DNA of 64,000 nucleotides from Shigella phage vB_SboS_Gloob (OL615011), one strand, 5' to 3'. Counted from the stretch's first letter, positions 24,501 to 44,974 are shown. Notes: generated from the letters alone by a model not told the origin. Translations and numbers: made by a program.

Positions 24501-26397
24501 GGTAGTACGCCGCATCGCGCTGGCCGCCGTCCAGAGTGAAGTTCGAGGTGACGTCAGCGCCATTTGCGTTCTTCACGCTGACCAGTTTGTAGCCGTCGTG
24601 ATTGTTCAGCTGTACGCTGGCCGCCGAAGTGAACGTTGCGGTCTCGGTGACTTCGGTCACAGTCTTTGTCTTGATCGTTGCTGTGGTACGCACCATCAGA
24701 GCCAACAGGTTGATGGATTGGTTGGCATAGCCAGCACCCAAAGAGATCTGGAGAGCAGAACCCACTGGTGTACCTGTCAGAGACAGTCCTGAAGAAATAT
24801 CGAACTGAGCTGCAGTGCCATCTGCCTTCGCCGCCGAATACAAAGAGAATTCAGGACTGAAGCTGTAGCCCAGAGGAGCAGAGATAGAGCCTGTGCCTGC
24901 CGCACTCAACGTGATCTTGTTTGACCGCAGGACGGTGTAGTTGATATCAATGGTTCCAGTAGGAGCCAAGGTCTTCACGCCGAATACAGGCAGAGGGAAG
25001 ATCAGGTCAATCGCCGAACTCTGGCTGAACTGATTAGACTCCAGTTCGCAAGAGAACATTGTTGTACCGCTTTCTTCATAAGCGACTTTGGTCACCGTGC
25101 CCATGTCCCCAGTCACGACCAGATCACGCATGTACAGACGGAATTCAGTACCGGAGCGCTCTGCTGAAATCAGCAGCGCCGTTGCCTGGGTCACGCTCGA
25201 AGCGTTCAGGAACTTGTAACGGATTGTGCGAGAGACAACCGGAACCCCTTTGGAGTTCTTGGACACCAGATAGTTGCCAGTCGCAACAGCCACAGGGTTG
25301 TTGTTCAGGGTATCAGTGTCACGGGCTTTATCAATGGTGACCAGCTCTTCGCCGAGGTTTTCGATACGACGGCCACGAACGTAGGAGATCCCTGGCTTCA
25401 TGACCGCCACGAATTTGCTTGCGTCACCACCTTCAGCCGGAGTGTACACGCCGCCGTTGTTGTTCTCTTTCAGATGTTCACGCAGGTCGATCTGATGCGT
25501 AGACACGTTGTAGTCACCATTGGTCTCATAGGTACGCTGAGCCATGGTGTCTTCGAGGATGTTGTACGTTGACTGGGTGACCATGGACTGAATGCGACCG
25601 TCTTTCACCTTCGCCAGTTCAACGAAGTCGGCCACTTCTTCATCATAACCGTAGCGAGACAACACGAGGTCGACGCGCAGGCGATGCGCGCCAGGCGCTT
25701 TAGAGTTCGGAGTACCCTGCGCATTGGAATACAGGCTTTCGTCTTCTGCTTCTGTAACAATGGTTTCTGTTACTTTGAATCCAACGCGGTGTGAAGTAGA
25801 GTTGGACGCGTTATCTACGATCAGAGTAGCTGGTTCAACATCTAGGAACATACCACGAACAAAATAAACACCCTTTGTCATGCGAGCAACAATCGAACCG
25901 CCAACAGTAGCAGCCACACCATAGCCGACGCGGATGAAGTTATCGTTCACGTCGTAGGTGTTGAAGTACAGGTTATCCCCAGCTTCGAAACCGTCTGAAC
26001 TACCACTCTCAGTCATCTCTAAGATGGCATACATTGTATCCGGCTCAGCCAGGTAACGTTCCAGAGACAGGACGCGTGCTTTCGCATTGTTGTCCTTGCC
26101 CAGAACATAGAGTTCGGAGATACCTTCCAGATCAGTGAACTCGCTACCACCAGCCAGAGTGAACTTCATGGACACTGCGGTGTTGGTGATTGTCAGACCG
26201 CCGGGAATAACCATAGATCCTTCTTTGAAAAGATGGTTGCCGATCTTTTCAAGCTGGTCTTGGAAGATAGTCTGAAGCTGGTTCAGTTCACGCGTCTGTA
26301 CTTTGATAGGAGCCGGACGGAACAGGATGCGTGAAAAACGCTTCTCTGGATTCCAGTCATCCCAGTACGGGCGGCGGTTGAGGTTCATTTCTTGCAT
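21559..26397 (-). CDS. giant virion structural protein (1612 aa), function unassigned
   Basis: ATG at 26397 (MQEMNLNRRPYWDDW); the 88-codon extension in the track overlaps the upstream tailspike 3' end and is rejected. Confidence 0.6.
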   Translation of the reverse strand: MQEMNLNRRPYWDDWNPEKRFSRILFRPAPIKVQTRELNQLQTIFQDQLEKIGNHLFKEGSMVIPGGLTITNTAVSMKFTLAGGSEFTDLEGISELYVLGKDNNAKARVLSLERYLAEPDTMYAILEMTESGSSDGFEAGDNLYFNTYDVNDNFIRVGYGVAATVGGSIVARMTKGVYFVRGMFLDVEPATLIVDNASNSTSHRVGFKVTETIVTEAEDESLYSNAQGTPNSKAPGAHRLRVDLVLSRYGYDEEVADFVELAKVKDGRIQSMVTQSTYNILEDTMAQRTYETNGDYNVSTHQIDLREHLKENNNGGVYTPAEGGDASKFVAVMKPGISYVRGRRIENLGEELVTIDKARDTDTLNNNPVAVATGNYLVSKNSKGVPVVSRTIRYKFLNASSVTQATALLISAERSGTEFRLYMRDLVVTGDMGTVTKVAYEESGTTMFSCELESNQFSQSSAIDLIFPLPVFGVKTLAPTGTIDINYTVLRSNKITLSAAGTGSISAPLGYSFSPEFSLYSAAKADGTAAQFDISSGLSLTGTPVGSALQISLGAGYANQSINLLALMVRTTATIKTKTVTEVTETATFTSAASVQLNNHDGYKLVSVKNANGADVTSNFTLDGGQRDAAYYRSNLVSSTGAISGVFTVVYQYFAHSSGDFFTADSYSSIDYQDIPNYVSSSSGTVYGLADSLDFRPKITSGASDTDMVRPNTAIVLDAEYYLPRIDAVYLADNGVFNVARGVSSNNLASPAIPDNGMRLYELMIPPYTANIDDIQIRTIDNRRYTMRDIGKLETRISNVEYYTSLSQLESSAMTQQVFDPITGNPRFKNGIAADPFKDFRLIDDLSADWVGSIDTDNGRLRPFVQQNAVDLTPVGWNNVQDGMVVCNYTREISVRQDYATTTINVNPYAVFNWEGFLKLNPTTDYWFENYYVAPRVINETINTRGAIKEGSVYGTWRTVSVSERVWEPHGAGGVWWGYRYRTTVSTRDVTTYTYTDKTTTTLTGEQIVETQVIPYMRKTNINFEATGLRPFTRVYPFFSGRDVSAYCTPNGGSLGGALNTDANGNIKGVFAVPQNETVKFNTGDNVFRLTDSPVDSKSADDTLTNAEAVHKSFGKKQGIQKTYVNTRVLGYTATKSTENKTETVEVAKWKDPIAQSFMVATNIGGEYIEGIEVFFSTKSRDIPITLEIREMSNGLPATTVVTRKTLNPSEVSISTDSSVPTMFKFDYPVYLQAQTEFAIVLLANTQDYNAYIAEMGKKNLLTNEFIAKQPYTGVFFTSSNGTTWTPNQTADMKFRVYRCNFSAGDNIVTFDAKVGPKIRPLGLNMVNCVSGSSTVTVYAPGHGLTAGESVTLSGLTGGCGFTPEQLNTQHTVTDASFTSFKVVLSSNADSDGQIGGEEASFLGNYLVDMFYASVTNSALEGSVLKLEYRYRDATSNSFSDWAEFESDTDVPLPTEGIYRQVGDFQVRATMTRNESNVYTAPMIDGDDFTIIFNTYGVDPFEDVFSYVTKDIGFDNPCTTLKQYFGAMLPSQSSMTVQVKLLRAGQEMDDVAWETVTPTSPLVNDGSTFFEYEYDKTVDSTNPFVGLKIRLLVRGNRTAPPSFKDFRLIALA

Positions 26398-26432
26398 TTT
26401 GATGCTCCATCGATAGGTGCCATTATAGACAT

Positions 26433-26443
26433 ATTTAGTATAC
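26433..26443 (-). promoter_or_regulatory. late promoter motif variant CTAAATATGTC
   Basis: About 35 nt upstream of giant-gene ATG. Confidence 0.4.
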
Positions 26444-26470
26444 AGCCAACCGAGGAATAGAAAGAAATAA

Positions 26471-26486
26471 GCCCTCCGAAGAGGGC
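26471..26486 (-). terminator. terminator GCCCTCTTCGGAGGGC plus U-tract after tailspike array
   Basis: Stem-tetraloop followed by UAUUUCUUUCU on minus strand. Confidence 0.65.
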
Positions 26487-26492
26487 TCTGAT

Positions 26493-28955
26493 TTAGTTGA
26501 CAGAATCCAGCATCGACAAACATTTCAGCTGAACTTGCACAACACTTTCGTTGGTCACGGCTGGAACAGTCAACCCAGATGCAGATATGCCGAAATTCGC
26601 TATGAAGCCTGTGGTCTGACTCCGCACGACATCTGTACCCGTGCCGCTCCCACCGTTGCAAGCAAACTGGGTCTGTTTCGAACCGAAAGCATCACCATTA
26701 CCACTTACACATAACTGCCAAACTCCGCGAGGAAGAGTTCCCGGTATTGTTATGGAAGCCGCCCCCGCAGGCCTGGTGAATTTAATATTTTCAAAGAAAA
26801 TAGTATCTTCAATTGTAGCCGTGTTTCGTGTTCCGAAACTCAGTGCCTGGTTTCCAACAAAACTGATGGATGTGCGACTGTCAAGAACAAAGCTAGACAA
26901 AAGCCCAGTCTGTGCTGTGACGTTACAGTCGACGATGTTGCCGTGTGCAGTGACCGCTTTCGGAATACCCTGAATTTTGTAACCAACAGTCCGGTAATTC
27001 AGAGAAAGGTTATTCAATTGTTTAACAGTATTCCCGATCATCTTGACTTTCTGGCCGCGATAAACCTGACCAGAAGTTGCCCCCGCATTAACGCAAATCC
27101 CCTCCGTTTTGTTATTAGAGGTATTGCATTTCATGACCACGGTATTATGGCTGATGTCTATATCGTTGTAAACAAAGTACGAGCTGTCCCCCGCACCAGT
27201 TGCTATGGAAACACCGTCGACAGAACGGAGTTCGCAATAGTTGTTTAGCACTTTCACGAAAGGTTCAGGATAAGTTGTGCTCGTGGGTTCACCCCCGCCC
27301 CCGACGTCGATAGACCTGGTATACTTCGCCCCAATCAATGGACCCGTGGTCTCACTGTCTGGAATGTCGCGAGAACGGACGTAGTTGTTTGCAATTATCA
27401 GGTTATACGGCTCATAATTTGGACTCCAGCCGACGCCACATTTGGCATAAATACCCACAACGCCGTGTTCTAAACATTGGTTTCCCGTGATGATCGCTTG
27501 TCCACCACCATGGAAATCAATACATTTTCTACGACAATTTTGGATCTGATTGTTGGTGACTGTAACGTTTCTGACTCGGCGGTTTCGGCCGTGTGTAATG
27601 CCATACCCAGGGTCATAACTGGCGTTGACCAAGTCATCACCGGATGGATGCCCGATATCATTAATGACGTTGGCGTCGTAGTTCAGGCGATAACCAGATA
27701 GCACATAAATGCCGCCACTGTAGCATTTACTGATAGTAGAATTGACCACCAAAATACCGTTCGGTACGTCTGAATCCACGGTGTAGTCGGCTGTCCCATA
27801 AGCAACAGCGGCGTTCCTGATACCGATACCAACCCCAGCAAAGTTGAATCCGGTTATATGACAGTTATTAATCAAAATGCCACGACATGCTCTCTGCACT
27901 TTAATCCCACACGCCCAGCTTCCGATGTAACCACCAAGGAAAGTGCCCCAAGTGCTCCTCCAACCCGCAATTTGGGTGCCTGCGGAGTCGTAGGAAGGGA
28001 ACTGCCCAGATACACCAGAATAAGCACCACTAGTGTAAGCAGAACTGTCAACTGAATTGTTGGGTCCTGTGATTTGAGCTGAATCATACCCAAAGCCAGT
28101 TTCACCTTTCTCTGCATACCCGGTGGTTGGGTCTATCGCTGGGAAAATGCTGGGTCCGGTTATCGTCAGTTGCACAGTAACGTTTTCACAATTAACTAAT
28201 GATAAAGCGTCAAGTCCGTGTGTATTGACTTTAATCGAACCATTGAATACCTTTATCCCTTTCTTGTTCACGAGCGCTAAACAAGGGCTGAAGTTTCTTG
28301 TTCCATCAGAAAAGTCAGATTCACCGGGATATTTGTTAGCCAACGCAGGATTTTTGGACACGAGGTAATTTCCTCCACCCAAATTCAAATCCCCAGAAAC
28401 TGATTCAAAGAAAGCTTGGAGGGCTAACGTGTCGTCCGTGCTACCATCACCGATAGCACCGAAGTCTTTTGGAGTCAAAATTCTTTTGGCTGGGTTAGAT
28501 TGTAAAACCCAGGTAGAAGAAGAAATGCCTCCTGTGTTAGAGACTGTGTCGTTCGCCGATACCGTCTTCGGCAGAGAACCCGCCCAACGATACAATTCCT
28601 TCCCGTCACTCACCAATTCGTTCTTGACGCGGATAGTGAATCCAGACGTAAAGTTTTCGACCAGAGTAACGAACTCCCCACGTATTACAGCCAAAGCACC
28701 CAGGTCGACAGTGCCCGTATTGTGTACAAGAATGCCGTCTGTCAGGCTGGTGATGGTAGCGCCAGCAGGCAGGTTAGAAGGTAGTGCATAGGAGCGCTGA
28801 GTGACCTTATCGTAGATTACCTTGTAACCAGTCAGGGTGGAACCTGGTTTAGCATACAGAACTTCGGACTTCTTGCATCCAAACTTGCGAGCAATGGAGT
28901 CCTTGTTTGTCTCTTTGGAGACAGAGCCTTTCGGCTGTGAAAATTGCGGATTCAT
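26493..28955 (-). CDS. tailspike protein (about 820 aa), beta-helix depolymerase-like
   Basis: Start MNPQFSQPKGS with AGGAG SD; N-terminal WAGSLPKTV docking motif; Asn/Gly-rich repeats typical of right-handed beta-helix. Confidence 0.7.
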   Translation of the reverse strand: MNPQFSQPKGSVSKETNKDSIARKFGCKKSEVLYAKPGSTLTGYKVIYDKVTQRSYALPSNLPAGATITSLTDGILVHNTGTVDLGALAVIRGEFVTLVENFTSGFTIRVKNELVSDGKELYRWAGSLPKTVSANDTVSNTGGISSSTWVLQSNPAKRILTPKDFGAIGDGSTDDTLALQAFFESVSGDLNLGGGNYLVSKNPALANKYPGESDFSDGTRNFSPCLALVNKKGIKVFNGSIKVNTHGLDALSLVNCENVTVQLTITGPSIFPAIDPTTGYAEKGETGFGYDSAQITGPNNSVDSSAYTSGAYSGVSGQFPSYDSAGTQIAGWRSTWGTFLGGYIGSWACGIKVQRACRGILINNCHITGFNFAGVGIGIRNAAVAYGTADYTVDSDVPNGILVVNSTISKCYSGGIYVLSGYRLNYDANVINDIGHPSGDDLVNASYDPGYGITHGRNRRVRNVTVTNNQIQNCRRKCIDFHGGGQAIITGNQCLEHGVVGIYAKCGVGWSPNYEPYNLIIANNYVRSRDIPDSETTGPLIGAKYTRSIDVGGGGEPTSTTYPEPFVKVLNNYCELRSVDGVSIATGAGDSSYFVYNDIDISHNTVVMKCNTSNNKTEGICVNAGATSGQVYRGQKVKMIGNTVKQLNNLSLNYRTVGYKIQGIPKAVTAHGNIVDCNVTAQTGLLSSFVLDSRTSISFVGNQALSFGTRNTATIEDTIFFENIKFTRPAGAASITIPGTLPRGVWQLCVSGNGDAFGSKQTQFACNGGSGTGTDVVRSQTTGFIANFGISASGLTVPAVTNESVVQVQLKCLSMLDSVN

Positions 28956-28988
28956 AACGAATCTCCTGTTGTTATTCTCAATGGAAAG

Positions 28989-29011
28989 CCCCACTTAGTT
29001 AATAAGTGGGG
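28989..29011 (-). terminator. hairpin CCCCACTTA-GTTAA-TAAGTGGGG between tailspike genes
   Basis: 9-bp perfect stem downstream of stop at 29034. Confidence 0.45.
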
Positions 29012-29033
29012 AAAGGAAAGGTGTAAAATTAAT

Positions 29034-31241
29034 TTAAGAAGATGCAGACCATTGTGGCATGCTGAGTGTCCACTTACCAATTGACGTCCAATAAGTAGCA
29101 GTAAATGTAGCAGTCTTAGTTGTGGCAGTATTCGCACCCGTAACATCAACAGGAACACCTGCAAAACTCAAAGATGCAATGTTACTACCACGAACCAACA
29201 TATTAATTTTTTGCCCGTTATACGGTGTTCCAGACACTGTGATATTCAAACCGGAAGTCACATTTAGATAATATAATGCGTATCCCTGTCGGACATCTAT
29301 AGGAAGTGTTCCAGCTGTATATTGTGCAAAGGATTGTGTACCACGGTCTACAGCCAAGCCGTCTGTGTTACCTATTGGGATAACGGTTCCGCCAGGGAAT
29401 GCCCTAGCCCTTGGAATATAGGCGTAACATTGGCTTGCCCCAGAGAAATCAAACCAACGGGTTCTCAGTCCATTATTAGGAGCATGGATCACAGCCCCAA
29501 CACAACCACGACCTCGATACATACAGTCACCGATGGAATGACTATGATTTATACCGGCACAATAAAAGTCCCGGCTTCCTCCGCTTAGGTTGATATCAGC
29601 AATATCATTACGCTCAAAGTACATTCCGTAGACGTTTGTTCCGTCTGCGCTGTCGTAAAGTCCAAACTGACTGGTGTTCTGGCTAAATCCACCTGTAATG
29701 CACACGGCAGATGTGGAAAAGGTATTCACGTAATCGACATCAGTGCTTCCGTCAGTGCTGTTAAAAACTACGATGCCATAATCGCACTTGTTAGCAGGGT
29801 CGCCAGAGTATCCTCGATGGTCTTTAATCGTAATAGCATTCGGGCCATTAAGGACAAACAGACGTTTACCACCTATTCCACCGTTCAAAACCTCAGAGTT
29901 AGATATAATAACCCCATAACTCATAAACTCGATTCTAATTCCGGTGTTTCCTGTTCCTAGCCCCATATCAATCCAAGGGTCGAAAACACCAGTGTTGTTT
30001 CTGGCGCTGTATAAATGCAAGCCGATACAGTTGTTAAACCCAGAAAGGTCAATACGTATATCGTGAGTCTTACAGTTTCGAATAAAGGCGCTATTAACGT
30101 CTAATGAAGAAGCTCGTGCTACAGTGACTCCATCCGCCCCAGCTTTAATTTTTGCATTGGGATGGAAAAATACTTGGGTGTTCTGACCGAATTTAATGGT
30201 TTCTGCTGCCGTTGATACGGTGTAGTCTCCTGCATTGAAATAAATCCCACCACCAGCGGCCAAAATTGTGTTGATTTCCGCGTTGGTCATCGTCGGATAG
30301 ATGTTTTTCAACGGGAAAACGCCGGTTTTAACGGCATAATCATCGAAAATAGTACCACCATACCCGCTGCCAATTAATTTAGTTCCTATATCAGAAGCCA
30401 ATTGGTCACGTAAAGAATTTTGGTCTACTCGTACCCAAGCATCAACATCAATACCACCAGTGGTAACTGGAGTAGATCCGGCTACCACAGTTTTAGGCAG
30501 CGTGCCTGCCCAACGATACAATTTACCTTCTGCCTTATATCCGACAGACTGAGAAGCCGTAATAACAGTAGCACCAGCTTCAAACGTGCCTACCATAGGC
30601 AAACCAGATTCGGCAGCTAATCGACTCAGGATAGGATCGAGAGCACCACTGAAATTACCAGAGGCTTGTTTAAGTGTATTAATCTCCTCTTGCACCGTCT
30701 GCCCAGAAGACGTACCAATCAGACTTGCTCCTCCATCGGAAGAGAGCGCCAGGTAATTTTGTTTGATGGACATCTCGGCCACGACCCAAACCCCAGCCGC
30801 TGGTGAACCTGTAAGGAAACTCACAACTCCTGTTGTGCTATTGTAGGTGTAGTCAACCCCAGGAACCTGGAACTTACCATCGATATACAGGGTCTGCACA
30901 CCATATGTGGTGAAGTCGGGTGTGAACGTTGTTTCGTTGCCAACGGCCTGGAACTTGTAGATTCGGATCCCGTTTTCATAATCTTCTGGGGACAGGATCT
31001 TGTCAAACAGACAGTACACAACGTCTTCTGGTTCAAGAGATCGACCGAGGTTGACAGTGTTACCATCGATTTCATAATTGTCGACAGGAACCTGGACGCC
31101 GCCGTTGATGGTGATGAAGCCCGTAACAGGATAGAACGGGAGGGAGATAAACGTCTCTCCGCCCGTTGCGGTATAAGTGTATGGAATCTGGTGCGGGGCT
31201 GTTACAACCGCTCCAAAGATACTCTCGACGTTTCTGGTCAT
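29034..31241 (-). CDS. tailspike protein with extended N-terminal attachment domain (about 735 aa)
   Basis: Start MTRNVESIFG; WAGTLPKTV motif at about residue 250; beta-helix-like repeats. Confidence 0.7.
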   Translation of the reverse strand: MTRNVESIFGAVVTAPHQIPYTYTATGGETFISLPFYPVTGFITINGGVQVPVDNYEIDGNTVNLGRSLEPEDVVYCLFDKILSPEDYENGIRIYKFQAVGNETTFTPDFTTYGVQTLYIDGKFQVPGVDYTYNSTTGVVSFLTGSPAAGVWVVAEMSIKQNYLALSSDGGASLIGTSSGQTVQEEINTLKQASGNFSGALDPILSRLAAESGLPMVGTFEAGATVITASQSVGYKAEGKLYRWAGTLPKTVVAGSTPVTTGGIDVDAWVRVDQNSLRDQLASDIGTKLIGSGYGGTIFDDYAVKTGVFPLKNIYPTMTNAEINTILAAGGGIYFNAGDYTVSTAAETIKFGQNTQVFFHPNAKIKAGADGVTVARASSLDVNSAFIRNCKTHDIRIDLSGFNNCIGLHLYSARNNTGVFDPWIDMGLGTGNTGIRIEFMSYGVIISNSEVLNGGIGGKRLFVLNGPNAITIKDHRGYSGDPANKCDYGIVVFNSTDGSTDVDYVNTFSTSAVCITGGFSQNTSQFGLYDSADGTNVYGMYFERNDIADINLSGGSRDFYCAGINHSHSIGDCMYRGRGCVGAVIHAPNNGLRTRWFDFSGASQCYAYIPRARAFPGGTVIPIGNTDGLAVDRGTQSFAQYTAGTLPIDVRQGYALYYLNVTSGLNITVSGTPYNGQKINMLVRGSNIASLSFAGVPVDVTGANTATTKTATFTATYWTSIGKWTLSMPQWSASS

Positions 31242-31247
31242 TTGAAG

Positions 31248-31288
31248 ATACCCCATAGAGGATTTGCCAATATGGGGTATTTAGTGAA
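31248..31288 (-). repeat. 41-nt module ATACCCCATAGAGGATTTGCCAATATGGGGTATTTAGTGAA, copy 1 (late promoter plus leader palindrome)
   Basis: Identical to 33467-33507; contains CTAAATACCCC on minus strand and inverted repeat ATACCCCATA / TATGGGGTAT. Confidence 0.75.
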
Positions 31289-31440
31289 TGGATAAGGAGT
31301 CGCAGGACTCCCACTTGTTTTATATGATTACGAATTTACCCAGGCTGATATCGTTAATCAGCGTAGCCACTATGTTTGCCAGTTGGGTGGTTGTTAACGT
31401 GTTCACATGACCACGCAATTGCTGGCTACAACAATGATTG

Positions 31441-33462
31441 TTAGCTTAGATTTAGACTAAACCCACCATTTGACTTGCTTATCATACCACGAACAGTTTT
31501 GTTGCCTCCACCGCTGTATTCGTCATATTGCATTTTGACATTTACAGCGATGTTGGCGTCAATTGAATCCCATCCAGCAAAGTTCAGGAACACATTTCCG
31601 CTAGTGTCTACTGATATTGTTGGCGTGGCGGCTGTTCCTTTTGTGAACGTACTTTGCACTGAACCTTCCATTGTGCTTGCTGCTGGAGTTGTGCCCATCA
31701 CCAATGTTCCCTGCAATCGCCCATGCCATGCGCTAGAAACACCTGAAACCGGGGAGTTGGCTACAACATCAACCGTCCACAAACTTACGTTTCGGTACGT
31801 ACTCACAGTGCCAATTTTAAAATTCCTGGAATCTCCAGCGGCTTTAATGAACAGCATTGAACCCGTAGCGCATTTACTTGAATCAGGCGCTGCACCTACA
31901 GATGCAAAATCAGAGAATGTGCAATTATCAAATTTTACTTTGCTATAATCGGTAGCTGTTAACTTAGCTTCTGGCGCATTAACATTTTCGAATTTAACTC
32001 CGCCATAGTTCGCCACTGCGCCTGTAAGCTGATTGGTATTGACATATACATCACCACCATTCAGCTTTCGGACCACCAGGTCACGACAGATAAATCCGTT
32101 AATAGAATCTCCCGACGTCCAGTTGTCGTTGGTGTTGAAGTTAAAGAACCATGCATGGTTACCAGAGTCTCCGCCGCCAAGTTCTATGCGTCCGGTGATC
32201 ACAATATTTGAATAACCATATCCACGCGGGTTATTATCTGCTACAGACTCGTCAATCAGCTTTGTTGCGCCAATAACACTTCCCCAATTCCCCCCGACGA
32301 CATCATAATTGATGGTTATGTTACGCATCAGTCCGGCAATCATCGTCTCTGTTATGGTGCTGTCCCAACCCCAATCCAGCCATATTGGTGCTACGCGGTA
32401 CGGAAGCGTGTAACGCCCTGTGCTACGATATTTGTAATTGACTGTAAGATTAGATATTTGATTATCCATGTTACCGTTATAGAAATACATTTTGATTGGC
32501 GTACCCTGTTGAGTATCAATGGCATCAACAGTTATCTGGCCACCACCACAATTGTTCGTCAGAAAGAAATCACGACGGCAACCATTATTAACTGTATGGA
32601 TGTCAACTACACCAACATTACCAAGGAGATGTGGATAGCGAGTGTCATTGTTCACACTGCGAGCAAAAAGATTTTTTACATTAGTACATTCGTAGCCCTG
32701 ATAGCACTTGTTAGTCTTGCCAATAAATGTGAAATTATTGCATCCATTCAGGCGCAGCGGGGTTAGTCCGCGTTTGTCATCACCGACATACTCAAGGGTG
32801 GAAGAAGCATCCACTTCAAACACCAGATTGGTGATATTCGTCAGGTCGAACACGCGCGTCAGGTCAAATGCACCGGAGTAAAGCAGGGTGTCCCTGATAA
32901 CCAGTCCGCGAATTTCAAGGCAGTCCATATTACTTAAAGTAAAGATGGTACTAAGACCGCCACTACCAGGACCAAAGTTCACAACCTGGTCAAAAATAAT
33001 TTCAACACTTTTTAGGTTGTTAGACGTGATGTAAGACTGTAAAGATTGCAGTGTACCGAATCGGGAGAAGTAAAGGACACGTTTGTTTACAACCGAATCA
33101 AGAGCATCTTTTACTGTAGATGATTCGTATCCGACAAGACTTGCCTTTTCACCCGTCAGCAGTTCAGAACCCAGCGTTTTGCTTTCAACGCTAACCCATG
33201 CTGAAGATGATACACCACCAGTTGATTGTGGTGTTGAGTTTTTGTCTACAGTCTTGGGCAAAGACCCACCCCAGGTATAACACTGGGCACCATTGATGTG
33301 CCACACGGCGTCGGTTGCGGTCGTTACAGTAGCACCGTCTTCAAAACTACCTTCGACCAAATTAAGACCCGATTCCAACAAAGCCCGCCGCCACAATTCG
33401 CGCGGGTTTTTGTTGATTTCTTTGGCTGTTGAACCTTTCGGCTGATTGAATTGCGGATTCAT
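31441..33462 (-). CDS. tailspike protein (about 673 aa)
   Basis: Start MNPQFNQPKGS; WGGSLPKTV motif; beta-helix-like. Confidence 0.7.
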   Translation of the reverse strand: MNPQFNQPKGSTAKEINKNPRELWRRALLESGLNLVEGSFEDGATVTTATDAVWHINGAQCYTWGGSLPKTVDKNSTPQSTGGVSSSAWVSVESKTLGSELLTGEKASLVGYESSTVKDALDSVVNKRVLYFSRFGTLQSLQSYITSNNLKSVEIIFDQVVNFGPGSGGLSTIFTLSNMDCLEIRGLVIRDTLLYSGAFDLTRVFDLTNITNLVFEVDASSTLEYVGDDKRGLTPLRLNGCNNFTFIGKTNKCYQGYECTNVKNLFARSVNNDTRYPHLLGNVGVVDIHTVNNGCRRDFFLTNNCGGGQITVDAIDTQQGTPIKMYFYNGNMDNQISNLTVNYKYRSTGRYTLPYRVAPIWLDWGWDSTITETMIAGLMRNITINYDVVGGNWGSVIGATKLIDESVADNNPRGYGYSNIVITGRIELGGGDSGNHAWFFNFNTNDNWTSGDSINGFICRDLVVRKLNGGDVYVNTNQLTGAVANYGGVKFENVNAPEAKLTATDYSKVKFDNCTFSDFASVGAAPDSSKCATGSMLFIKAAGDSRNFKIGTVSTYRNVSLWTVDVVANSPVSGVSSAWHGRLQGTLVMGTTPAASTMEGSVQSTFTKGTAATPTISVDTSGNVFLNFAGWDSIDANIAVNVKMQYDEYSGGGNKTVRGMISKSNGGFSLNLS

Positions 33463-33466
33463 GATA

Positions 33467-33507
33467 ATACCCCATAGAGGATTTGCCAATATGGGGTATT
33501 TAGTGAA
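33467..33507 (-). repeat. 41-nt promoter/leader module, copy 2
   Basis: Identical to 31248-31288. Confidence 0.75.
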
Positions 33508-33518
33508 ACATTTTACCG

Positions 33519-36500
33519 CTACACGTATACAATGCGCATTATTGCGTTCGTTCCGGCCTCAACAATTGATGTGACAGAACCAATTTTTACGCCAGTCGAA
33601 TCAGTAATTCTTACTACCCCGTCCACATTGTCAATCTTTGAATTAACAGTCTGGTTAATCTGTATGGCATTCACTTTGTTTGAGGATATTTCGCTTGCAA
33701 CCAGAGTACCAGTGGTCATGACTATACCCACAGAAGAACTTCCCTGGTTTAATACAGCGTCACGGATAATGGCTTTGGTGACATTTCCACCAAACTGAAT
33801 ATCTGCAGACGTAGTTGATGCCTGATTAATACGTTTTACACCAGATATTGTGATCAAAGATATTACACCTGAAGTGATGTCCAAGGAAATAGCACCTTTG
33901 TTCGTGGCTGGACTGGACAAGGAAATATCAGACAAGTGAACAACGCCAATGGTATTCCCAGCCCTTTGTTGAAAACGAATACCGCCGCTGTATCCTTGTC
34001 CGTATATCCCATTTATATGGGCATACGGAACGTTACCCAGCGCGTCGCGAATCGCAACTACATATTCAGCACCTTCGGACCATATATTTGTTGCGTTAAC
34101 TTGTCCTGAGTTTATCAACAAACCCGCACCGATCCCCGCCAATGTGTCAGAACCTGTGCGCTCTGTATTCAAGAACAGATTGCTAACATGGTTTAGGCCA
34201 TACGCACAATCAACTCCATTCGATATGCGTCCGCGTCCTGTGATCGATTCCGCCCACCCATTTTCACCATATAAACTAACGATAGAATACATGGCCGTGT
34301 CTGTGGTATCGCAAACTGCGTTAACAATCTTAACTGAAACATCATTGGCTTGAATTTTAACAGCACGTTTACGAACGTTGTAACAATCAATGTCTTCGAC
34401 GCGAATATTCTTTGCGCTCAACATCGTCGAGGTCGAGTCATATATCTGTACAACGACCCCATCACAATCTTCAAATGGAGCCAATTCGCGAACACGTATT
34501 GATTTGATCAAACCACTGGAAACTGTGGATTGCGTCGGCGCAGGATCGAGTGCTGTTCCGACGATAATGCCACGACATGGGCCATCCGCATCCCCTTGTG
34601 AGCCGTTCGCAACTGAAGTCAGGTTACGAATAGTCACATCATAAACCAAAAAATCTGTGATACCATTAGCATCGACAAATATCCCGTTGGCATTGGTTGC
34701 TCCTGTGCTGTCAAATACTTCAACAGAAACAACTCGAGGTCTAGAAGATCCCGTTTTAAGGTGAACGGCGCGGCGAATTGCTTTGTTATTACAATTCACC
34801 TTTACGTCCCGTAGAGTTGTAGAATTTACGGTTACAAACGAACCAGTATCACCCAATGCTACAACTTCACCATTGAATAATTTCTTGACAATATTCAAGC
34901 TAGAAACAGGAACGGCATATCCGTTCAAATCAACATCGAGTCCAAATTCCATGATGGCTTCGATGGATTCTTTTGCATCAGCAAGTCCCGTGGTATACAC
35001 ACCAGGCCAGCGCAGCTTACCACCATTGGGTAATAATTTGTACGAATTGGAATTGTAAGTCAGATACAAATGAGAACTCTGAACTGAAAATCCTTCAGAA
35101 AGACCCGTCACCGAAGTATCCAAGACGTAAACTTCGCCAGAAATGATTATGGTTTCAAACGCTTCGGTATCCATTTCTTGCCCAGCGTGAACCCCGCCAC
35201 CAATATAGTTGATCCCTACACTGGAACCCAAGAGACTAGACAAATGGTCTGCAGAGCCCAAGTATGGTATCAAAGTCACAACGACGTCACCAGGAGCATA
35301 CGTCAGGGTGCTACCGCTGACAGACACGATAGAAGCGCCCGTTGGAATGCCCGCAGGTAAACCCCAAATCTTCTGAGCAACTACATCGTAAATGATCGTC
35401 TTGCCGCCCAATTTGGTCACAGTATCCGAAGTCATGATCACCTGGGAAAGAGGGACATTGGTTGCCCGCGCCACTTCGTTTGGTGTGCGGTCAATCTGAT
35501 TGTACAGTGTTGGATCACCATTAATGACGACAACAACCTCATCACCAGCTTCGAGTTCGTCGGCCAGCGTGATGATCTTCGTAACAGAGTCATAAGTGAA
35601 GCCCAGGCCTTTCTGCTGGCGGGATCCATCGATAAAGATCTCAGAAACATCTTCGGCATCCACGTCCAACTCAATCTCAGTTTCACCACCCACAGCTGAT
35701 CCACTATTGTAGATCCAAGTGATAACCGTACCACCACCCGCACCGCCGGAGCCATTGCCCAACTGGATCGGGACGTATTGGATGACCTGCAGCTCGGAAC
35801 CTGATGGGATTGATGGACTGAAGTCGACATTGAAACCATTGAGGGAATACTTTGACTCTAGCAGGCGCTTCCCGTCAACATACACATCAACAATGGACGG
35901 CTGTGTGGTGAGAGTTACCTGAGCTGTGTCTGATGCAACTGTCTCAGTGAAGATGGTACGACTGTAAACGCGCCCCTGACCAAGACCGACGCCAGCAGTC
36001 ACAATCCAACCACGCGCGTCTCCAGACCAGGTAAAGGTCGCAGACACGCTATCGGTGGAGAGAGTCATAGGCTCTACAGAGCCGTACATTGGGCGACCAT
36101 TTGGGTCAATGGTCAGAGGATACAGGGAGAACTTTCCATACAAGTCACAGACTGTAACAGAATCACCAATGCGCGTAGGGGAAGGAAACACCACCGTAGA
36201 GACGCCCGTGGAGTTGTCTACCAGATAGCCTCGCCCTTCAGTGAGCGTTGCCGTAGAGGCATGCGGAAGGGCTTCCCAGCGAATACCACCGCCACCCAGC
36301 GGCATCCATCCACCATTTTCGTAGAAGCCCTCAAATTCGTCGGAGTCGGCATTGTAGCGAACAGAAGACGGGAGACCTGCGCTGGCATTACCCTCGGGTA
36401 AAGTCAGGACAGCATCTGGTCCATGCTCAATCGTACCCGTGTTGAGGATACCAGCCAAAGTAGACTGCTCTTCAGCCACCAGACCGAGAGGGAAAACAGG

Positions 36501-36521
36501 CTGTGTTGGTTTATTAGCCAT
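33519..36521 (-). CDS. large tailspike / branch-anchor protein (about 1000 aa)
   Basis: Start MANKPTQPVF; long N-terminal region then beta-helix-like C-terminal part; first gene of the array. Confidence 0.65.
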   Translation of the reverse strand: MANKPTQPVFPLGLVAEEQSTLAGILNTGTIEHGPDAVLTLPEGNASAGLPSSVRYNADSDEFEGFYENGGWMPLGGGGIRWEALPHASTATLTEGRGYLVDNSTGVSTVVFPSPTRIGDSVTVCDLYGKFSLYPLTIDPNGRPMYGSVEPMTLSTDSVSATFTWSGDARGWIVTAGVGLGQGRVYSRTIFTETVASDTAQVTLTTQPSIVDVYVDGKRLLESKYSLNGFNVDFSPSIPSGSELQVIQYVPIQLGNGSGGAGGGTVITWIYNSGSAVGGETEIELDVDAEDVSEIFIDGSRQQKGLGFTYDSVTKIITLADELEAGDEVVVVINGDPTLYNQIDRTPNEVARATNVPLSQVIMTSDTVTKLGGKTIIYDVVAQKIWGLPAGIPTGASIVSVSGSTLTYAPGDVVVTLIPYLGSADHLSSLLGSSVGINYIGGGVHAGQEMDTEAFETIIISGEVYVLDTSVTGLSEGFSVQSSHLYLTYNSNSYKLLPNGGKLRWPGVYTTGLADAKESIEAIMEFGLDVDLNGYAVPVSSLNIVKKLFNGEVVALGDTGSFVTVNSTTLRDVKVNCNNKAIRRAVHLKTGSSRPRVVSVEVFDSTGATNANGIFVDANGITDFLVYDVTIRNLTSVANGSQGDADGPCRGIIVGTALDPAPTQSTVSSGLIKSIRVRELAPFEDCDGVVVQIYDSTSTMLSAKNIRVEDIDCYNVRKRAVKIQANDVSVKIVNAVCDTTDTAMYSIVSLYGENGWAESITGRGRISNGVDCAYGLNHVSNLFLNTERTGSDTLAGIGAGLLINSGQVNATNIWSEGAEYVVAIRDALGNVPYAHINGIYGQGYSGGIRFQQRAGNTIGVVHLSDISLSSPATNKGAISLDITSGVISLITISGVKRINQASTTSADIQFGGNVTKAIIRDAVLNQGSSSVGIVMTTGTLVASEISSNKVNAIQINQTVNSKIDNVDGVVRITDSTGVKIGSVTSIVEAGTNAIMRIVYV

Positions 36522-36554
36522 TTCAAATACCCCTAAATGTGTTCGTTTCATCTA

Positions 36555-36565
36555 GGGGTATTTAG
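36555..36565 (-). promoter_or_regulatory. late promoter motif CTAAATACCCC with downstream palindrome
   Basis: Exact motif about 30 nt upstream of ATG 36521. Confidence 0.5.
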
Positions 36566-36573
36566 TTTTCACT

Positions 36574-37785
36574 TTAGAAAGAAGCGACTAGATTGTAGTC
36601 AACGGAGCAAGCAGTCGTCGTGTTCGCATTTGTTATCGTCAAACGAAGTTTTGAAGACACTACAGAACCCGCGAATGTCACCGTACCGGAAGTGGACTTC
36701 TGAATCAACAACTCCGACTTGATAGTCCCGTCACGAGTGATCGTCACTCGATACGTATCCACGACGTTGCCCGTACCCCATTGCGCGCTAATCAACACCT
36801 GGCAAAGGTTCACCAAGTCGAAGTCAGGCAATGCCGAGTTACCAGAAGCAGAGATAGTGATACTGCTTAGGTTGGTCTTCCCGATCTTTACACGGGCGGC
36901 AATGTCGGCGTCCAGGCTCGTCATTTTGGCGTTGTAGGTCGATGTGTTGACCTTTCCAGACAACGTGGTATTGATCGTGCCGATATCACTCTGAATGCCG
37001 CTGATGGAACTGTCCAACGCCGCCATCTTCGTGTTATACGTACTGACGTTCACTTTGTTGTTCGTCAGATCCAGTATACTGGTGTCCAGGCTAGACATCT
37101 TGGAGTTGTAAGTCGACGTGTTGACCTTCGCAGCCAGAGTGGTGTTGACAGTGTTGAACTGAGACTGGATATCCAACATATCGGCATCATATTCAACAAC
37201 CTTCAGATACGCGTTGAAACGCGTATCATTGAAGATAGAAGTCACAAACGCAGATGTGTCGTACTTGACAGTGTCGGTTCCACTCACCAGTAACATGGTA
37301 GTTGGCACACCAGTACCAGAGTAAGTGGTCAGATTTGTGCCATCGAAAGTGAGTTTGTTGTAGCCGCCAGATAACAACTCGATTTTCAGACCAGAGTTAA
37401 CCCCGGCAGTGTCTTCACTCACGCCGTGCTTGCGCAGCATAGACAGATTGACGCCATCAGTGGAATCAACTGGCTCATCTGCGATGGTAAGTTTCTTCCC
37501 CGTAGGGATACTGACACCAGCATTGGCTCGGATTTCTGCGGCAAAAGTCTTCCGCCCGTTGATAGTTTGTTCCCCGCCGTCGGTGCGAATCACCTTATTA
37601 TCCAACGTGTCGTAGATGTTATCCACAGAACGCTTCAGTTCATACGTCAAACGAGCAGACGGTGGAAACAGAGGATCGTTCACCGCAAAGTCGTCGATGA
37701 CATCGTTCTTGCTTACTTTATCGTCAACAGAAGAAAGGATTTCATCAATCTGCTGACCTGTGTATTGACTCAGAAAATCGGCCAT
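36574..37785 (-). CDS. tail fibre-like protein with internal tandem repeats (403 aa)
   Basis: AAGGAG SD; three about 25-aa repeats (KVNTSTYNSKMSSLD, KVNVSTYNTKMAALD, KVNTSTYNAKMTSLD). Confidence 0.55.
   Translation of the reverse strand: MADFLSQYTGQQIDEILSSVDDKVSKNDVIDDFAVNDPLFPPSARLTYELKRSVDNIYDTLDNKVIRTDGGEQTINGRKTFAAEIRANAGVSIPTGKKLTIADEPVDSTDGVNLSMLRKHGVSEDTAGVNSGLKIELLSGGYNKLTFDGTNLTTYSGTGVPTTMLLVSGTDTVKYDTSAFVTSIFNDTRFNAYLKVVEYDADMLDIQSQFNTVNTTLAAKVNTSTYNSKMSSLDTSILDLTNNKVNVSTYNTKMAALDSSISGIQSDIGTINTTLSGKVNTSTYNAKMTSLDADIAARVKIGKTNLSSITISASGNSALPDFDLVNLCQVLISAQWGTGNVVDTYRVTITRDGTIKSELLIQKSTSGTVTFAGSVVSSKLRLTITNANTTTACSVDYNLVASF
36880..37200 (-). repeat. about 75-nt imperfect tandem repeats inside the fibre gene
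   Basis: Repeated GTTGACCTT / GTCGA(C/T)GTG units encoding the repeated peptide. Confidence 0.5.
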
Positions 37786-37787
37786 TT

Positions 37788-38642
37788 TTAACTCCTTGAA
37801 CTTTCCAGGAATACAGTAAACCCAGCAGGATGGAAATGCTGACGGAAGACGCGCTCAAACACACCTTCAAAATCAGATACGTCGCCAGGAACTCTTATCA
37901 CATACGTGAATTCATCATAGTAGTAATCGTCACGCATTCCTGTCGCGCCGTCACATTCAAAGTTATCGTCCAGACCACCAATTTCTTCCTTGGGATAGTA
38001 CACACTCACAGGGCAACCAAAATAAATCCAGAAAAACAATTCAATCGCTTTCTTCGTCCCACGAATGCGATAAATGTGTTTAAGCAACTTCAACCAGCGG
38101 ACATGGTCCAGCGTTCGACGTTTGGTTCCCTCGACATACACAGAGAGCGTGTCTCCGTCTGAAGTCACCAAACTGTCCGAACCAACTGGCACAAACTTCC
38201 CGAACTCCAGGAAGGTCTTATCAACCGTTCTCTGGAATCCAAAATCAGCATACCAATCGTCGATGCGTTCGTTCTTGTCTTCCATTGAGATTAATGGCCG
38301 ACCGTCTACATCCAGCAAATTTTCGAAGTCTAGCGCCATCATGTTCTCAAACGTGCGCGTCAGGAACTTGTCTTCCAAGAAGTCCTTGGCCTCGGTCCCT
38401 GGTGTCTTGCGCTTCTTGATGTCAATCAGCTGCTCAATAGGAGATTGATCCGTATTTGGGTTCACCCAACCATCAGTGTCTGCCAGATACGCCAAGATCT
38501 CCTCTTCGGTGAATCCCTGCTGGCGATACAGCCAGTTGAAGAACGTGTCCATGAACTCGATGAACACTGGGAATTCATTCTGGTAGAACAATGGGGTTTC
38601 ATATTTCACCCCATTGTGTCCGTTATTGAGATCTTTGGACAT
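37788..38642 (-). CDS. baseplate-associated protein candidate (284 aa)
   Basis: Position between gp6-like gene and fibre gene; by position only. Confidence 0.35.
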   Translation of the reverse strand: MSKDLNNGHNGVKYETPLFYQNEFPVFIEFMDTFFNWLYRQQGFTEEEILAYLADTDGWVNPNTDQSPIEQLIDIKKRKTPGTEAKDFLEDKFLTRTFENMMALDFENLLDVDGRPLISMEDKNERIDDWYADFGFQRTVDKTFLEFGKFVPVGSDSLVTSDGDTLSVYVEGTKRRTLDHVRWLKLLKHIYRIRGTKKAIELFFWIYFGCPVSVYYPKEEIGGLDDNFECDGATGMRDDYYYDEFTYVIRVPGDVSDFEGVFERVFRQHFHPAGFTVFLESSRS

Positions 38643-40404: not shown

Positions 40405-40442
40405 GTTTATCTCCATCACCTGAACTTGAATATGGTGTTGAA

Positions 40443-43641: not shown

Positions 43642-43717
<76 letters not shown>

Positions 43718-44126
43718 TATTAAGGGGCGATAGTTTAAGGGATAGCTGTCCGGACAGCGAATCCTCATAGAGAACGGCTGGGCGGCCAAACCCAGCAGGT
43801 GAGGTGAAAAGCCTCAGACCCCGCCAAATTTGTGTTGAAGAGACGTTGGGTCAGAACCAACTCGCCCGAAAGGGGGATCGTATAGCGGTAATTATGCTTC
43901 GACACAACAGCATTATGGGGAGCACCGATGAGATGAGGGTTCGGGCGAGTTAAGCGACGGCCGATTAAGTCCTGTACTCTGTTCAAGGTGGTCTTAACCT
44001 CCCCACCAAATATTGTTGGACTGCCAGCAAGCTCCGGTCTACGGCAGGCGTGATGGGATCGCGGAATTCAAATACCGCCTTGGGAGCACCTAAATAAACC
44101 AGTTGTTCAATAAACAGTTGGTGAGT

Positions 44127-44327
44127 ATGATGAAAACGTTCGGTGATTTTATTGCTGAGTGGGATGGCCTCGCTACCGACAACAAAGAGATTGTCGAGTT
44201 TGTTGAAAAGCGAGGTGACAAGTGGGTTGTCCTTGACCACACCAAGACGAAGGTTCTTGGTACACATGACACCAAAGCTGACGCTGATGCCCAATTAAGG
44301 GCGATTGAAGCGAACAAGCACGGATAA
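44127..44327 (+). CDS. hypothetical protein (about 66 aa) abutting tRNA-Asn
   Basis: ORF track (track start is TTG at 44103; ATG at 44127). Confidence 0.4.
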   Translation: MMKTFGDFIAEWDGLATDNKEIVEFVEKRGDKWVVLDHTKTKVLGTHDTKADADAQLRAIEANKHG

Positions 44328-44328
44328 A

Positions 44329-44404
44329 GACGATGTAGTTCAGTCGGTAGAACGGTGGACTGTTAATCCATATGTCACAGGTTCAAGTCCTGTCATCGTC
44401 GCCA
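44329..44404 (+). tRNA. tRNA-Asn (anticodon GTT)
   Basis: GACGATG acceptor, D-arm GTTC-AGTCGGTA-GAAC, anticodon loop CTGTTAA, T-arm ACAGG-TTCAAGT-CCTGT, CCA encoded. Confidence 0.8.
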
Positions 44405-44661
44405 GACAATGGGTGTGAACGAAAGTGAATAGGCACGAAGTACGCGACCGACAAGCTCCAAGCCTCTGTCCAATAGCCGAACGGAATCTGAAGACGACGA
44501 TAGTAACGCCCACCAAATTCAGAGTGTAGAGGCTACAGTAGTGCGCACCTCACGGGTTGCTACACCGGACACTCTGATACAAATCTGCCGCTGCGTGGAT
44601 TAGCTGAGGAAGGATGGCCGATGTCCTCGAGCGTGGCCCAGCACGCAGCGGTAGACCAAAT

Positions 44662-44745
44662 GTGAGTGTGGCAGAGCGGTCGAATGCAGGAGACTGTAAA
44701 TCTCCCCGTAACAGCGCGGTGGTTCGAATCCATCCACTCACACCA
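44662..44745 (+). tRNA. tRNA-Tyr (anticodon GTA), long variable arm
   Basis: Acceptor GTGAGTG/CACTCAC, anticodon stem GGAGA/TCTCC with loop CTGTAAA, T-loop TTCGAAT, CCA encoded. Confidence 0.7.
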
Positions 44746-44970: not shown

Positions 44971-44974
44971 AATT

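Follow-up and report, generated by a model that had tools for sequence, protein, structure and literature searches.

The tailspike gene cluster of an Agtrevirus, protein-identical to that of Shigella phage vB_SboS_Gloob, with four different predicted beta-helix bodies

The tailspike (tsp) cluster described here is located on the minus strand at positions 26493-36565 of the window, i.e., the whole stretch of 64,000 nucleotides that was analyzed. The region is the tsp cluster of an Agtrevirus (Ackermannviridae), is protein-identical to that of Shigella phage vB_SboS_Gloob and very probably encodes a branched organelle of four trimers, which carry four different beta-helix bodies. By homology with the complex of phage CBA120, the four trimeric proteins would assemble into one branched receptor-binding organelle.

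Gene content, synteny and identity of the cluster

Four minus-strand ORFs were found in succession (33519-36551, 31441-33489, 29034-31256, and 26493-28994), all of them intact. Read from the ATGs conserved in homologues, the encoded proteins comprise 1000, 673, 735, and 820 aa, which are the same sizes as those of the four tandem minus-strand genes proposed in a first-pass annotation. According to the CBA120 scheme, the first gene of the cluster is tsp4 (33519-36521), followed by tsp3 (31441-33462), tsp2 (29034-31241), and tsp1 (26493-28955) as second, third and fourth gene, and the cluster is transcribed in this order. The PHROG and Pfam matches of the four genes correspond to tailspikes, and the Gloob proteins carry the annotation tail spike or beta-helix, in agreement with the tailspike function assigned in the first pass. 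The Asn + Gly content of the four proteins ranges from 16.9 to 19.6%, and all are within the top five of the 32 ORFs with a length of 200 aa or more; they are therefore Asn/Gly-rich compared with the rest of the window, as had been stated. The GC content across 28-34 kb is 44-46% vs. about 50% in the flanks.

Downstream, the cluster is flanked by a vriC-like structural gene (21559-26400, minus strand, 1613 aa; Pfam DUF4815, E 8e-60) at the position of Ag3 orf00206 and of the VriC gene of P46FS4. The upstream flank (36574-40419, minus strand) encodes a conserved 403-aa "tail fiber" and two wedge proteins (a 284-aa baseplate wedge and a gp6-like one), assigned by synteny with Ag3 and MK-13. The Pfam labels of these proteins were taken from another Agtrevirus contig (L005), the TSP4 of which differs from that of the window. 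The placement of the tsp cluster between the vriC-like and the baseplate-wedge genes is syntenic with Ag3, MK-13, and P46FS4, to which the flanks are 96% identical at the nucleotide level over 85-92% of 19 kb. Together with ChubbyThor and AV101, these phages belong to the same genus and carry the tsp locus at the same place, with vriC on one side and the baseplate wedge genes on the other. The N-termini of the spikes of the Agtrevirus relatives are 83-94% identical to those of the window, and none of the cultured Agtrevirus in the phage collection has a counterpart of its TSP4 body. The ViI-like arrangement suggested earlier was recovered as the canonical TSP4-TSP3-TSP2-TSP1 order in a member of the Ackermannviridae.

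Identity to Gloob proteins (UHS65012, UHS65013, UHS65015, UHS65016, P0101) was found for the products of all four ORFs and for the neighbouring 403-aa protein. Exact correspondence was found for the 820-aa TSP1 (UHS65012.1), the 740-aa form of TSP2 (UHS65013.1), and the 403-aa protein (UHS65016.1), and the 682-aa ORF form of TSP3 is 100% identical to a Gloob tail spike protein. The true start codons probably lie 5-13 codons downstream of the deposited ones.

A new Agtrevirus with a spike combination not seen before, rather than the deposited genome, was considered as well. In a collection of 50,697 phage genomes that does not contain Gloob, the best record, Ag3, covers just 44% of the region by megablast, and the matches of the TSP4 body are no better than 27% identity and belong to Vibrio phages. 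The new combination suggested by the 44% coverage was ruled out by the exact protein matches to Gloob: in an exact-sequence look-up, all four proteins were present in the 158,676-bp Gloob NCBI record with the same starts. A new phage is thus extremely improbable. The genome and its tsp cluster are already available as an annotated public record and have been compared in a publication (Sørensen et al. 2023), so that no new biology arises from the cluster. In that comparison of 14 genomes, the tsp cluster of Gloob is figured (Sørensen et al. 2023, PMC10791037), and the receptor-binding domain of Gloob tsp1 is said to resemble that of ChubbyThor tsp2 (PMC10791037). This resemblance could be reproduced, with an amino acid identity of 68.8% between the bodies.

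Each of the first three genes is preceded by the regulatory motif CTAAATACCCC, which is followed by a hairpin. Exact copies are located upstream of tsp4 (36555-36565), tsp3 (33493-33503), and tsp2 (31274-31284), all on the minus strand, and the leaders of tsp2 and tsp3 are almost identical. The end coordinate of the cluster, 36565, is the first base of the motif upstream of tsp4. In total, seven exact copies were found in the window vs. 0.6 expected, all of them 25-45 nt upstream of an ATG. The motif has been described as specific for ViI-like phages (PMC7283392). A terminator-like hairpin, detected by consensus scan only, is located directly after the tsp1 stop codon (26469-26488, minus strand); when the region was scanned for sigma-70 promoters and terminators, the counts did not exceed those of shuffled sequence.

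N-terminal modules and the shared head domain

Long N-terminal extensions with branch-forming domains had been proposed for the first and the third gene. Both expectations agree with the data: the conserved N-terminus of the 1000-aa protein extends to aa 432, the shared motif of the 735-aa protein is found at aa 244, and the T4-gp10-like XD domains of CBA120 TSP4 and TSP2 were detected in the two proteins. TSP4 consists of an anchor (aa 1-75), a Gly76-79 linker, XD1-XD2-XD3 up to about aa 338, a D1-like head (about aa 348-413), and the beta-helix body (aa 433-1000). Its residues 1-338 were aligned end to end with PDB 7REJ (1-336; E 1.9e-151), including the GGGG linker at 76-79, and its XD3 is very acidic (net charge -13, pI 4.05). 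TSP2 is composed of XD2-XD3 (aa 1-179), a PF18668 head with the motif (aa 219-273), a neck and a body (about aa 295-735). Residues 1-179 matched CBA120 TSP2 (6W4Q residues 1-179) with an E-value of 4.5e-74 (phmmer), and the XD3 segments of TSP2 (aa 99-142) and TSP4 (aa 276-319) share 36% identity.

For TSP1, a D1 head (about aa 14-95), a D2/PF18668 domain with the motif (aa 96-151), a neck and a beta-helix body (aa 160-820) were assigned. Residues 1-158 matched G7C gp63.1 (4QNL), CBA120 TSP3 (6NW9), and CBA120 TSP1 (4OJ5) with E-values of 1e-41 to 1e-45 (phmmer), the alignment of D1 + D2 with 4OJ5 residues 1-161 having an E-value of 5e-41. The D1 domain carries a net charge of +5 (pI 9.5) and complements the acidic XD3 of TSP4, a charge pattern as in CBA120 (PMC8825819; PMC11721090). 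TSP3 starts with the peptide MNPQFNQPKGS..., followed by a single PF18668 head with the motif (aa 37-92), a neck and the body (aa 95-673); the one PF18668 domain comes after a 20-residue peptide shared with TSP1. The charge of the TSP3 head is neutral.

In a six-frame translation of the 64-kb window, there are exactly three occurrences of W[AG]G[ST]LPK, each followed by TV...TGG. The copies detected by this regex search are WGGSLPK in TSP3 (33253-33273), WAGTLPK in TSP2 (30492-30512), and WAGSLPK in TSP1 (28566-28586), all on the minus strand, so that the motif is common to three of the four proteins as noted in the first pass, with one copy each in the 673-, 735-, and 820-aa proteins and none in the 1000-aa protein. 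Its position is aa 244 in the 735-aa protein vs. aa 64 and 124 in the 673- and 820-aa carriers. All copies lie within the Pfam domain PF18668 (Tail_spike_N, TSP1/Gp66 N-terminal domain), for which TSP1 (E 1.7e-14, 54.0 bits), TSP2 (E 2e-12, 47.4 bits), and TSP3 (E 9e-16, 58.2 bits) are above the gathering threshold of 25 bits; TSP4 lacks the domain in the Pfam search as well as the motif. As judged by sequence, W-x-G-x-LPKTV...TGG is the signature of a small PF18668 head ("TD" or D2) domain located after the attachment modules and before the neck and body.

In the first pass, the shared motif had been regarded as a docking motif; in this reading, it would attach every spike to the XD domains that form the branches. 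Binding to the complex requires, in CBA120, the head regions (D1-D2 or TD) of TSP1 and TSP3 (PMC8825819; PMC11414711), and the TSP3 of the window has the motif-bearing domain as its sole head, which both speak for this assignment. However, the docking of CBA120 TSP1 takes place via the D1 N-terminal surface and that of TSP2 via XD2 (PMC8825819), whereas the motif of the window's TSP2 lies downstream of its own XD2-XD3, and that of TSP1 is located in D2 and not on the positively charged N-terminal face of D1, to which docking maps. The motif is absent from the D1-like head of TSP4, for which docking on another spike is unnecessary. Furthermore, PF18668 is found in spikes with a T7-fibre N-terminal domain and, as the only recognized N-terminal domain, in 585-aa prophage spikes. 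Because relatives with T7-fibre-like or PF18668-only N-termini carry the domain, the motif is not branch-specific for docking. A dedicated docking motif is therefore unlikely, and the preferred explanation is a signature of the fold that the PF18668 head adjoining the neck adopts. A role of the PF18668 domain in docking is likely for the 673-aa TSP3 alone, where it is the sole head domain. As substrates for intragenomic recombination, the head-domain coding segments (n = 3) are too diverged in their DNA, in which the longest stretch in common is about 16 nt, so the motif is conserved at the protein level.

CBA120 TSP3 contains D1 + D2, whereas TSP3 of the window has one head domain. Due to this single head and the lack of a D1, the docking geometry of TSP3 may differ from that in CBA120. 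The Agtrevirus TSP3 may dock unlike CBA120 TSP3, using the single head and the short basic N-terminal peptide MNPQF(N/S)QPKGS that it has in common with TSP1. For Klebsiella podophages, a "conserved docking peptide" mode is described, which such peptide docking of TSP3 would resemble.

Fold, function and exchange of the bodies

Pairwise comparison of the four bodies revealed no significant similarity, in line with the distinct bodies claimed at the outset and consistent with different specificities. All four are right-handed beta-helices, as had also been proposed, with support of uneven strength: a Pfam match for TSP1, a profile link to Sf6 for TSP2, an AF2 model for TSP3, and capsule lyases as structural neighbours for TSP4. 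In TSP1, the Pfam family Beta_helix (PF13229) was detected with an E-value of 1.3e-6. The protein is 78.8% identical to P46FS4 ORF5 over its full length, and its body is about 70% identical to spikes of T7-like E. coli and Enterobacter phages.

The TSP2 body is 95% identical to protein P0027, with near-identity beginning at about aa 298; with the TSP1 bodies of Ag3 and MK-13, it shares 38-40% identity. A Pfam scan of close members of the TSP2 and TSP3 body families gave no convincing beta-helix match, and the alignment profiles of both bodies against PDB sequences gave matches confined to the N-terminal modules of homologues. Likewise, hhalign of the TSP2 and TSP4 body alignments aligned the shared head domain and nothing else. 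A deep profile of the TSP2 body led to the tailspike of Sf6 (2VBE, E 4.5e-11) and to further glycanases with a beta-helix, a link that came only with the addition of distant relatives from a search of 1.84 billion proteins; these relatives are above the threshold of Pfam PF12708. The beta-helix fold of TSP2 is supported by transitive profile homology and not by a model. The residues D243, E256, and D262 of the body are invariant even in relatives at 21-25% identity.

TSP3 is 99.1% identical to Ag3 orf00212 over its full length. The AF2 model of its body is all-beta with moderate confidence (pLDDT 73.4, pTM 0.64), and the top Foldseek matches are all phage tailspike depolymerases (E 5e-5 to 1e-3), at low TM values of 0.16-0.25. 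A partial match to this body (about 50% coverage, 79-84% nucleotide identity) is present in 8 of the 5426 complete E. coli genomes. For the TSP4 body, the best relative among 5.8 billion protein clusters reached 66% identity, in a search in which its own 90%-identity cluster, comprising 4 members, was not returned. The body belongs to a beta-helix family without a characterized member. In structure, the K1 and K5 capsule lyases are closest to it, which suggests that its target may be a capsular or other acidic polysaccharide and not an O-antigen; the body may be a hydrolase or a lyase. Neither a capsule-type target of TSP4 nor the alternative docking of TSP3 was found described for this phage, and it is doubtful that both proposals hold together.

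Relative to the solved structures of Sf6-, P22-, and HK620-type tailspikes and of the K1/K5 capsule lyases, the identity is about 10%, at which catalytic type and substrate are not transferable. One or more of the four proteins could be a beta-helix adhesin without depolymerase activity, or be absent from virions. This is improbable, as none of the four ORFs is disrupted, three of them are preceded by the family-specific motif, acidic residues are invariant within each body family (e.g., E252, D253, and D255 in the numbering of the TSP4 body alignment, besides those of TSP2), and the characterized CBA120 and AV101 systems have four active spikes.

The similarity to relatives stops at aa 432 of TSP4, at aa 89-101 of TSP3, at aa 212 or about 298 of TSP2, and at aa 158 of TSP1. 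Homologues of the bodies are located in E. coli and Enterobacter prophages and also in podophages, and their N-termini are of the P22 type (PF09008), of the T7 type (PF03906) or consist of PF18668 alone. Together with the lower GC content across 28-34 kb, this shows the bodies to be mosaic and horizontally exchanged, with swaps with other phages and prophages at the PF18668 domain boundaries.

Predicted complex and its implications

The branched complex for receptor binding that is formed by CBA120 TSP1-4 was reportedly described by Plattner et al. in 2019 and Chao et al. in 2022 (PDB 7REJ, 6W4Q, 4OJ5, 6NW9, 5W6H). Following this scheme, the N-terminal anchor domain of TSP4 would attach to the baseplate, and XD2 of TSP4 and XD2 of TSP2 would bind each other. 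The basic D1 head of TSP1 would dock on the very acidic XD3 of TSP4, and the head of TSP3 on XD3 of TSP2, assisted by XD3 of TSP4. Each body is predicted to bind, and probably to cleave, a different surface polysaccharide (O-antigen or capsule).

With the Kuttervirus CBA120, the cluster shares the gene order, the AD-XD1-XD2-XD3 architecture of TSP4 with its Gly76-79 linker, XD2-XD3 of TSP2, D1-D2 of TSP1, the combination of an acidic XD3 and a basic D1 in TSP1, and beta-helix bodies. In contrast, no sequence relationship exists between the four bodies and those of CBA120, PDB sequence matches stop at the N-terminal modules, TSP4 has a D1-like head without PF18668 (D2), and the phage belongs to the genus Agtrevirus. 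In podophage G7C, the N-terminus of gp63.1 is homologous to the TSP1 head (4QNL, E 4.9e-45), and the XD domains are gp10-like adaptors of the kind present in G7C gp66 and T4 gp10 (PMC8825819). However, G7C has two branches vs. four and another anchor, and the gp63.1 body is homologous to none of the bodies of the window.

For CBA120 and AV101, complex formation and O-antigen-specific depolymerizing spikes have been shown by experiments, and in the Agtrevirus AV101 the four TSPs were shown to recognize four different O-antigens. With four different bodies, the virion would therefore have up to four receptor specificities. For polysaccharides of Shigella, E. coli or Enterobacter, the predicted Gloob bodies are possible depolymerases or reagents for typing, and the mapped junctions at aa 432 of TSP4, about 95 of TSP3, about 295 of TSP2, and about 158 of TSP1 indicate the sites for engineered body swaps. 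With a conserved branched scaffold and four exchangeable, polysaccharide-specific spikes, as predicted here, the locus represents a textbook case of the multi-host range of the Ackermannviridae.

Genomic context of the tail spike cluster

Four consecutive genes on the minus strand, transcribed in the order tsp4, tsp3, tsp2 and tsp1 (CBA120 nomenclature), correspond to the ORFs 33519-36551, 31441-33489, 29034-31256 and 26493-28994 and encode 1000, 673, 735 and 820 aa, respectively, when counted from the ATG aligned with homologues, which are the sizes claimed in the first-pass annotation. The reported Asn/Gly-rich composition was found as well, with Asn + Gly accounting for 16.9-19.6% in all four proteins and placing them within the top five of the 32 ORFs that are 200 aa or longer. 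Across the six reading frames of the window, a regex search for W[AG]G[ST]LPK resulted in exactly three copies, one per protein in the 673-, 735- and 820-aa spikes, all continued by TV...TGG, so that the motif described for three of the four spikes could be verified. Because of this exact count and the Asn + Gly ranking, the observation of the cluster is genuine rather than a product of chance.

The locus is syntenic with those of the Agtrevirus phages MK-13, P46FS4, Ag3 and SKML-39, and its flanks are ~96% nucleotide-identical to them over 85-92% of 19 kb. In the collection of 50,697 phage genomes, which does not contain Gloob itself, no full match to the region was found, the best being Ag3 with 44% coverage. 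The 682-aa ORF form of tsp3 is 100% identical to a "putative tail spike protein" deposited for vB_SboS_Gloob, and the ORFs of 1010 aa (UHS65015.1), 740 aa (UHS65013.1), 833 aa (UHS65012.1) and 403 aa (UHS65016.1) likewise match Gloob proteins exactly, from a record of 158,676 bp; the Gloob tsp cluster is included in a comparison of 14 Agtrevirus genomes (Sørensen et al. 2023, PMC10791037). The locus is therefore already deposited, annotated and published, and the tsp cluster is a known system in a known genome. Its earlier interpretation was essentially right, except for the label "docking" given to the shared motif.

The cluster is flanked upstream by genes for a conserved 403-aa protein, a baseplate wedge protein and a gp6-like protein, and downstream by a vriC-like gene. 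The 403-aa protein (36574-37785, minus strand) adjoins tsp4, is annotated as "tail fiber", belongs to PHROG 3838 (unknown function) and contains several VNTSTYN-x-KM-x-x-LD-like repeats; the members of its 90%-identity cluster include Ag3, MK-13, AV101, SKML-39, P46FS4, ChubbyThor, ZQ1 and SW16-7. On the other side, a mechanically called ORF of 1700 aa (21559-26661, minus strand) extends into the 3′ end of tsp1. The true start of the vriC-like gene is probably the ATG at 26400, giving 1613 aa as for Ag3 orf00206; the protein carries DUF4815 and a weak Phage_spike_2 match. A cluster of four tRNA genes (Met-CAT, Asn-GTT, Tyr-GTA and Ser-GCT) lies downstream of the baseplate genes (43642-45063, plus strand), an arrangement also present in related Agtrevirus genomes.

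Putative leader elements and translation starts

The sequence CTAAATACCCC, a motif attributed specifically to ViI-like phages (PMC7283392), has seven exact copies in the window versus 0.6 expected, five on the minus strand (36555-36565, 33493-33503, 31274-31284, 3962-3972 and 776-786) and two on the plus strand (48451-48461 and 48939-48949). Each of the seven is separated by 25-45 nt from a downstream ATG on the coding strand; three precede tsp4, tsp3 and tsp2, and a CCCC...GGGG(TAT) hairpin, ending just before the start codon, follows most copies. The element is a putative late promoter or leader element. tsp1 is not preceded by a copy and has another hairpin at 29011-28989.

In the deposited annotation, the tsp genes start 5-13 codons ahead of the conserved ATGs, resulting in 682 (tsp3), 740 (tsp2), 1010 (tsp4) and 833 aa (tsp1). 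The additional codons occupy 33463-33489, 31242-31256, 36522-36551 and 28956-28994 (minus strand), respectively, and those of tsp3 and tsp2 fall within a non-coding-looking leader and hairpin. The downstream ATGs are the likelier true starts, because the 682- and 740-aa starts lie in different frames within a near-identical leader common to tsp3 and tsp2. The shorter forms (673, 735, 1000 and 820 aa) match the annotation of Ag3, including the start of orf00212, and the Logan gene calls are 1000 and 820 aa. Furthermore, residue 1 of TSP4 counted from the downstream ATG aligns with residue 1 of CBA120 TSP4 (7REJ).

N-terminal modules and the PF18668 domain

Residues 1-338 of TSP4 match the crystal structure of CBA120 TSP4-N (7REJ) end to end (E 1.9e-151), and a linker at Gly76-79 has the same position as in CBA120 TSP4 (PMC8825819); TSP4 therefore consists of an anchor domain and the T4 gp10-like domains XD1-XD2-XD3, followed by a region similar to the TSP1 D1 head (348-413). 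TSP2 1-179 aligns with CBA120 TSP2 (6W4Q, E 4.5e-74), corresponding to XD2-XD3. The branch-forming N-terminal extensions suggested for the first and third genes were thereby identified as XD domains. TSP1 1-158 aligns with G7C gp63.1 and the heads of CBA120 TSP1 and TSP3. In Gloob TSP3, an N-terminal peptide of ~20 residues leads straight into a single head domain, PF18668, and D1 is missing, unlike in CBA120 TSP3. The first ~19 residues, MNPQF[N/S]QPKGS..KE.NK, are common to TSP3 and TSP1 (33406-33462 and 28899-28955, minus strand), and this basic peptide might be a candidate docking peptide. Together with the CBA120-type gene order and the Agtrevirus synteny, these modules bear out the proposed likeness to the four-spike arrangement of ViI-like phages.

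PF18668 (Tail_spike_N) was detected in TSP3, TSP2 and TSP1 with 47-58 bits. The shared motif is located inside all three matches, and is thus the sequence signature of this domain, the head or "tandem" domain adjoining the neck. Its designation as a docking motif did not hold: in CBA120, TSP2 docks via XD2 and TSP1 via the N-terminal D1 face onto XD3 of TSP4 (PMC8825819, PMC11414711, PMC11721090), whereas the Gloob motif belongs to D2 in TSP1 and comes after XD3 in TSP2. The domain also occurs in body relatives with a T7-fibre N-terminal domain or with PF18668 alone. PF18668 is a structural adaptor, not a docking motif specific to the branch, and TSP3, where it forms the sole head domain, is the only spike in which it may have a part in docking. 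The longest run shared by the DNA of the three copies is ~16 nt; they are too diverged for mutual recombination.

Beta-helix bodies and the predicted spike complex

The beta-helix character proposed for the bodies is supported by evidence of differing strength. The TSP1 body has a Pfam Beta_helix match and resembles "pectate lyase superfamily" spikes. For the TSP3 body, an all-beta AF2 model of moderate confidence (pLDDT 73.4) was obtained, whose best Foldseek matches consist entirely of phage tailspike depolymerases and have low TM scores. Close homologues of the TSP2 body gave no link to PDB or Pfam. After distant relatives had been recruited by profile search from 1.84 billion representatives, three of them passed the threshold of PF12708 (pectate-lyase-like), and the profile including them matched the Sf6 tailspike (E 4.5e-11) and other beta-helix glycanases. 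Invariant acidic residues in alignments of the body families are consistent with, and do not prove, the predicted enzymatic activity.

The origin of the spikes is mosaic. TSP3 is 99.1% identical to Ag3 orf00212 and TSP1 78.8% to P46FS4 ORF5; the TSP1 body shares 68.8% amino acid identity over its whole length with ChubbyThor tsp2, in agreement with the likeness of the receptor-binding domains described previously (PMC10791037). The N-termini of TSP4 (1-432) in Gloob and Ag3 share 94% identity; for the Gloob TSP4 body no Agtrevirus counterpart was found in the phage collection, only 27%-identical Vibrio phage matches. In TSP2, the N-terminus (1-212) matches that of MK-13 with 83% identity. The identity of the TSP2 body is 38-40% with the TSP1 bodies of Ag3 and MK-13 and 95% with the 589-aa protein P0027, which has a different N-terminus, the near-identity to P0027 beginning at ~aa 298. 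Body homologues occur in podophages and in prophages of E. coli and Enterobacter hormaechei, with P22-type head-binding, T7-type or PF18668-only N-termini. The G + C content is 44-46% across 28001-34000 (tsp1-tsp3 bodies) versus ~50% in the flanks and the rest of the window, in line with horizontal acquisition of the receptor-binding modules. For AV101, the same kind of exchange, with both prophages and virulent phages, has been reported. On an uncultured Agtrevirus-like contig (L005, 7087-9951; Logan ERR11525716, 158,326 bp), TSP3 is 99% identical to that of Gloob and the neighboring TSP4 of 954 aa differs, having a Pect-lyase_RHGA_epim body; this is a further case of body swapping on the same scaffold.

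As shown by the homology of the modules, TSP4 is predicted to anchor to the baseplate and to offer two docking stations, with TSP2 providing one more. TSP4 XD3 has a net charge of -13 (pI 4.05), TSP1 D1 of +5 (pI 9.5) and the TSP3 head is neutral, the same pattern as in CBA120. Agtrevirus receptor data were found in the literature for AV101 only. In the predicted complex, the four trimers would be joined into a single branched structure with up to four polysaccharide specificities; binding and cleavage of its receptor by each body would allow the baseplate to reach the outer membrane.
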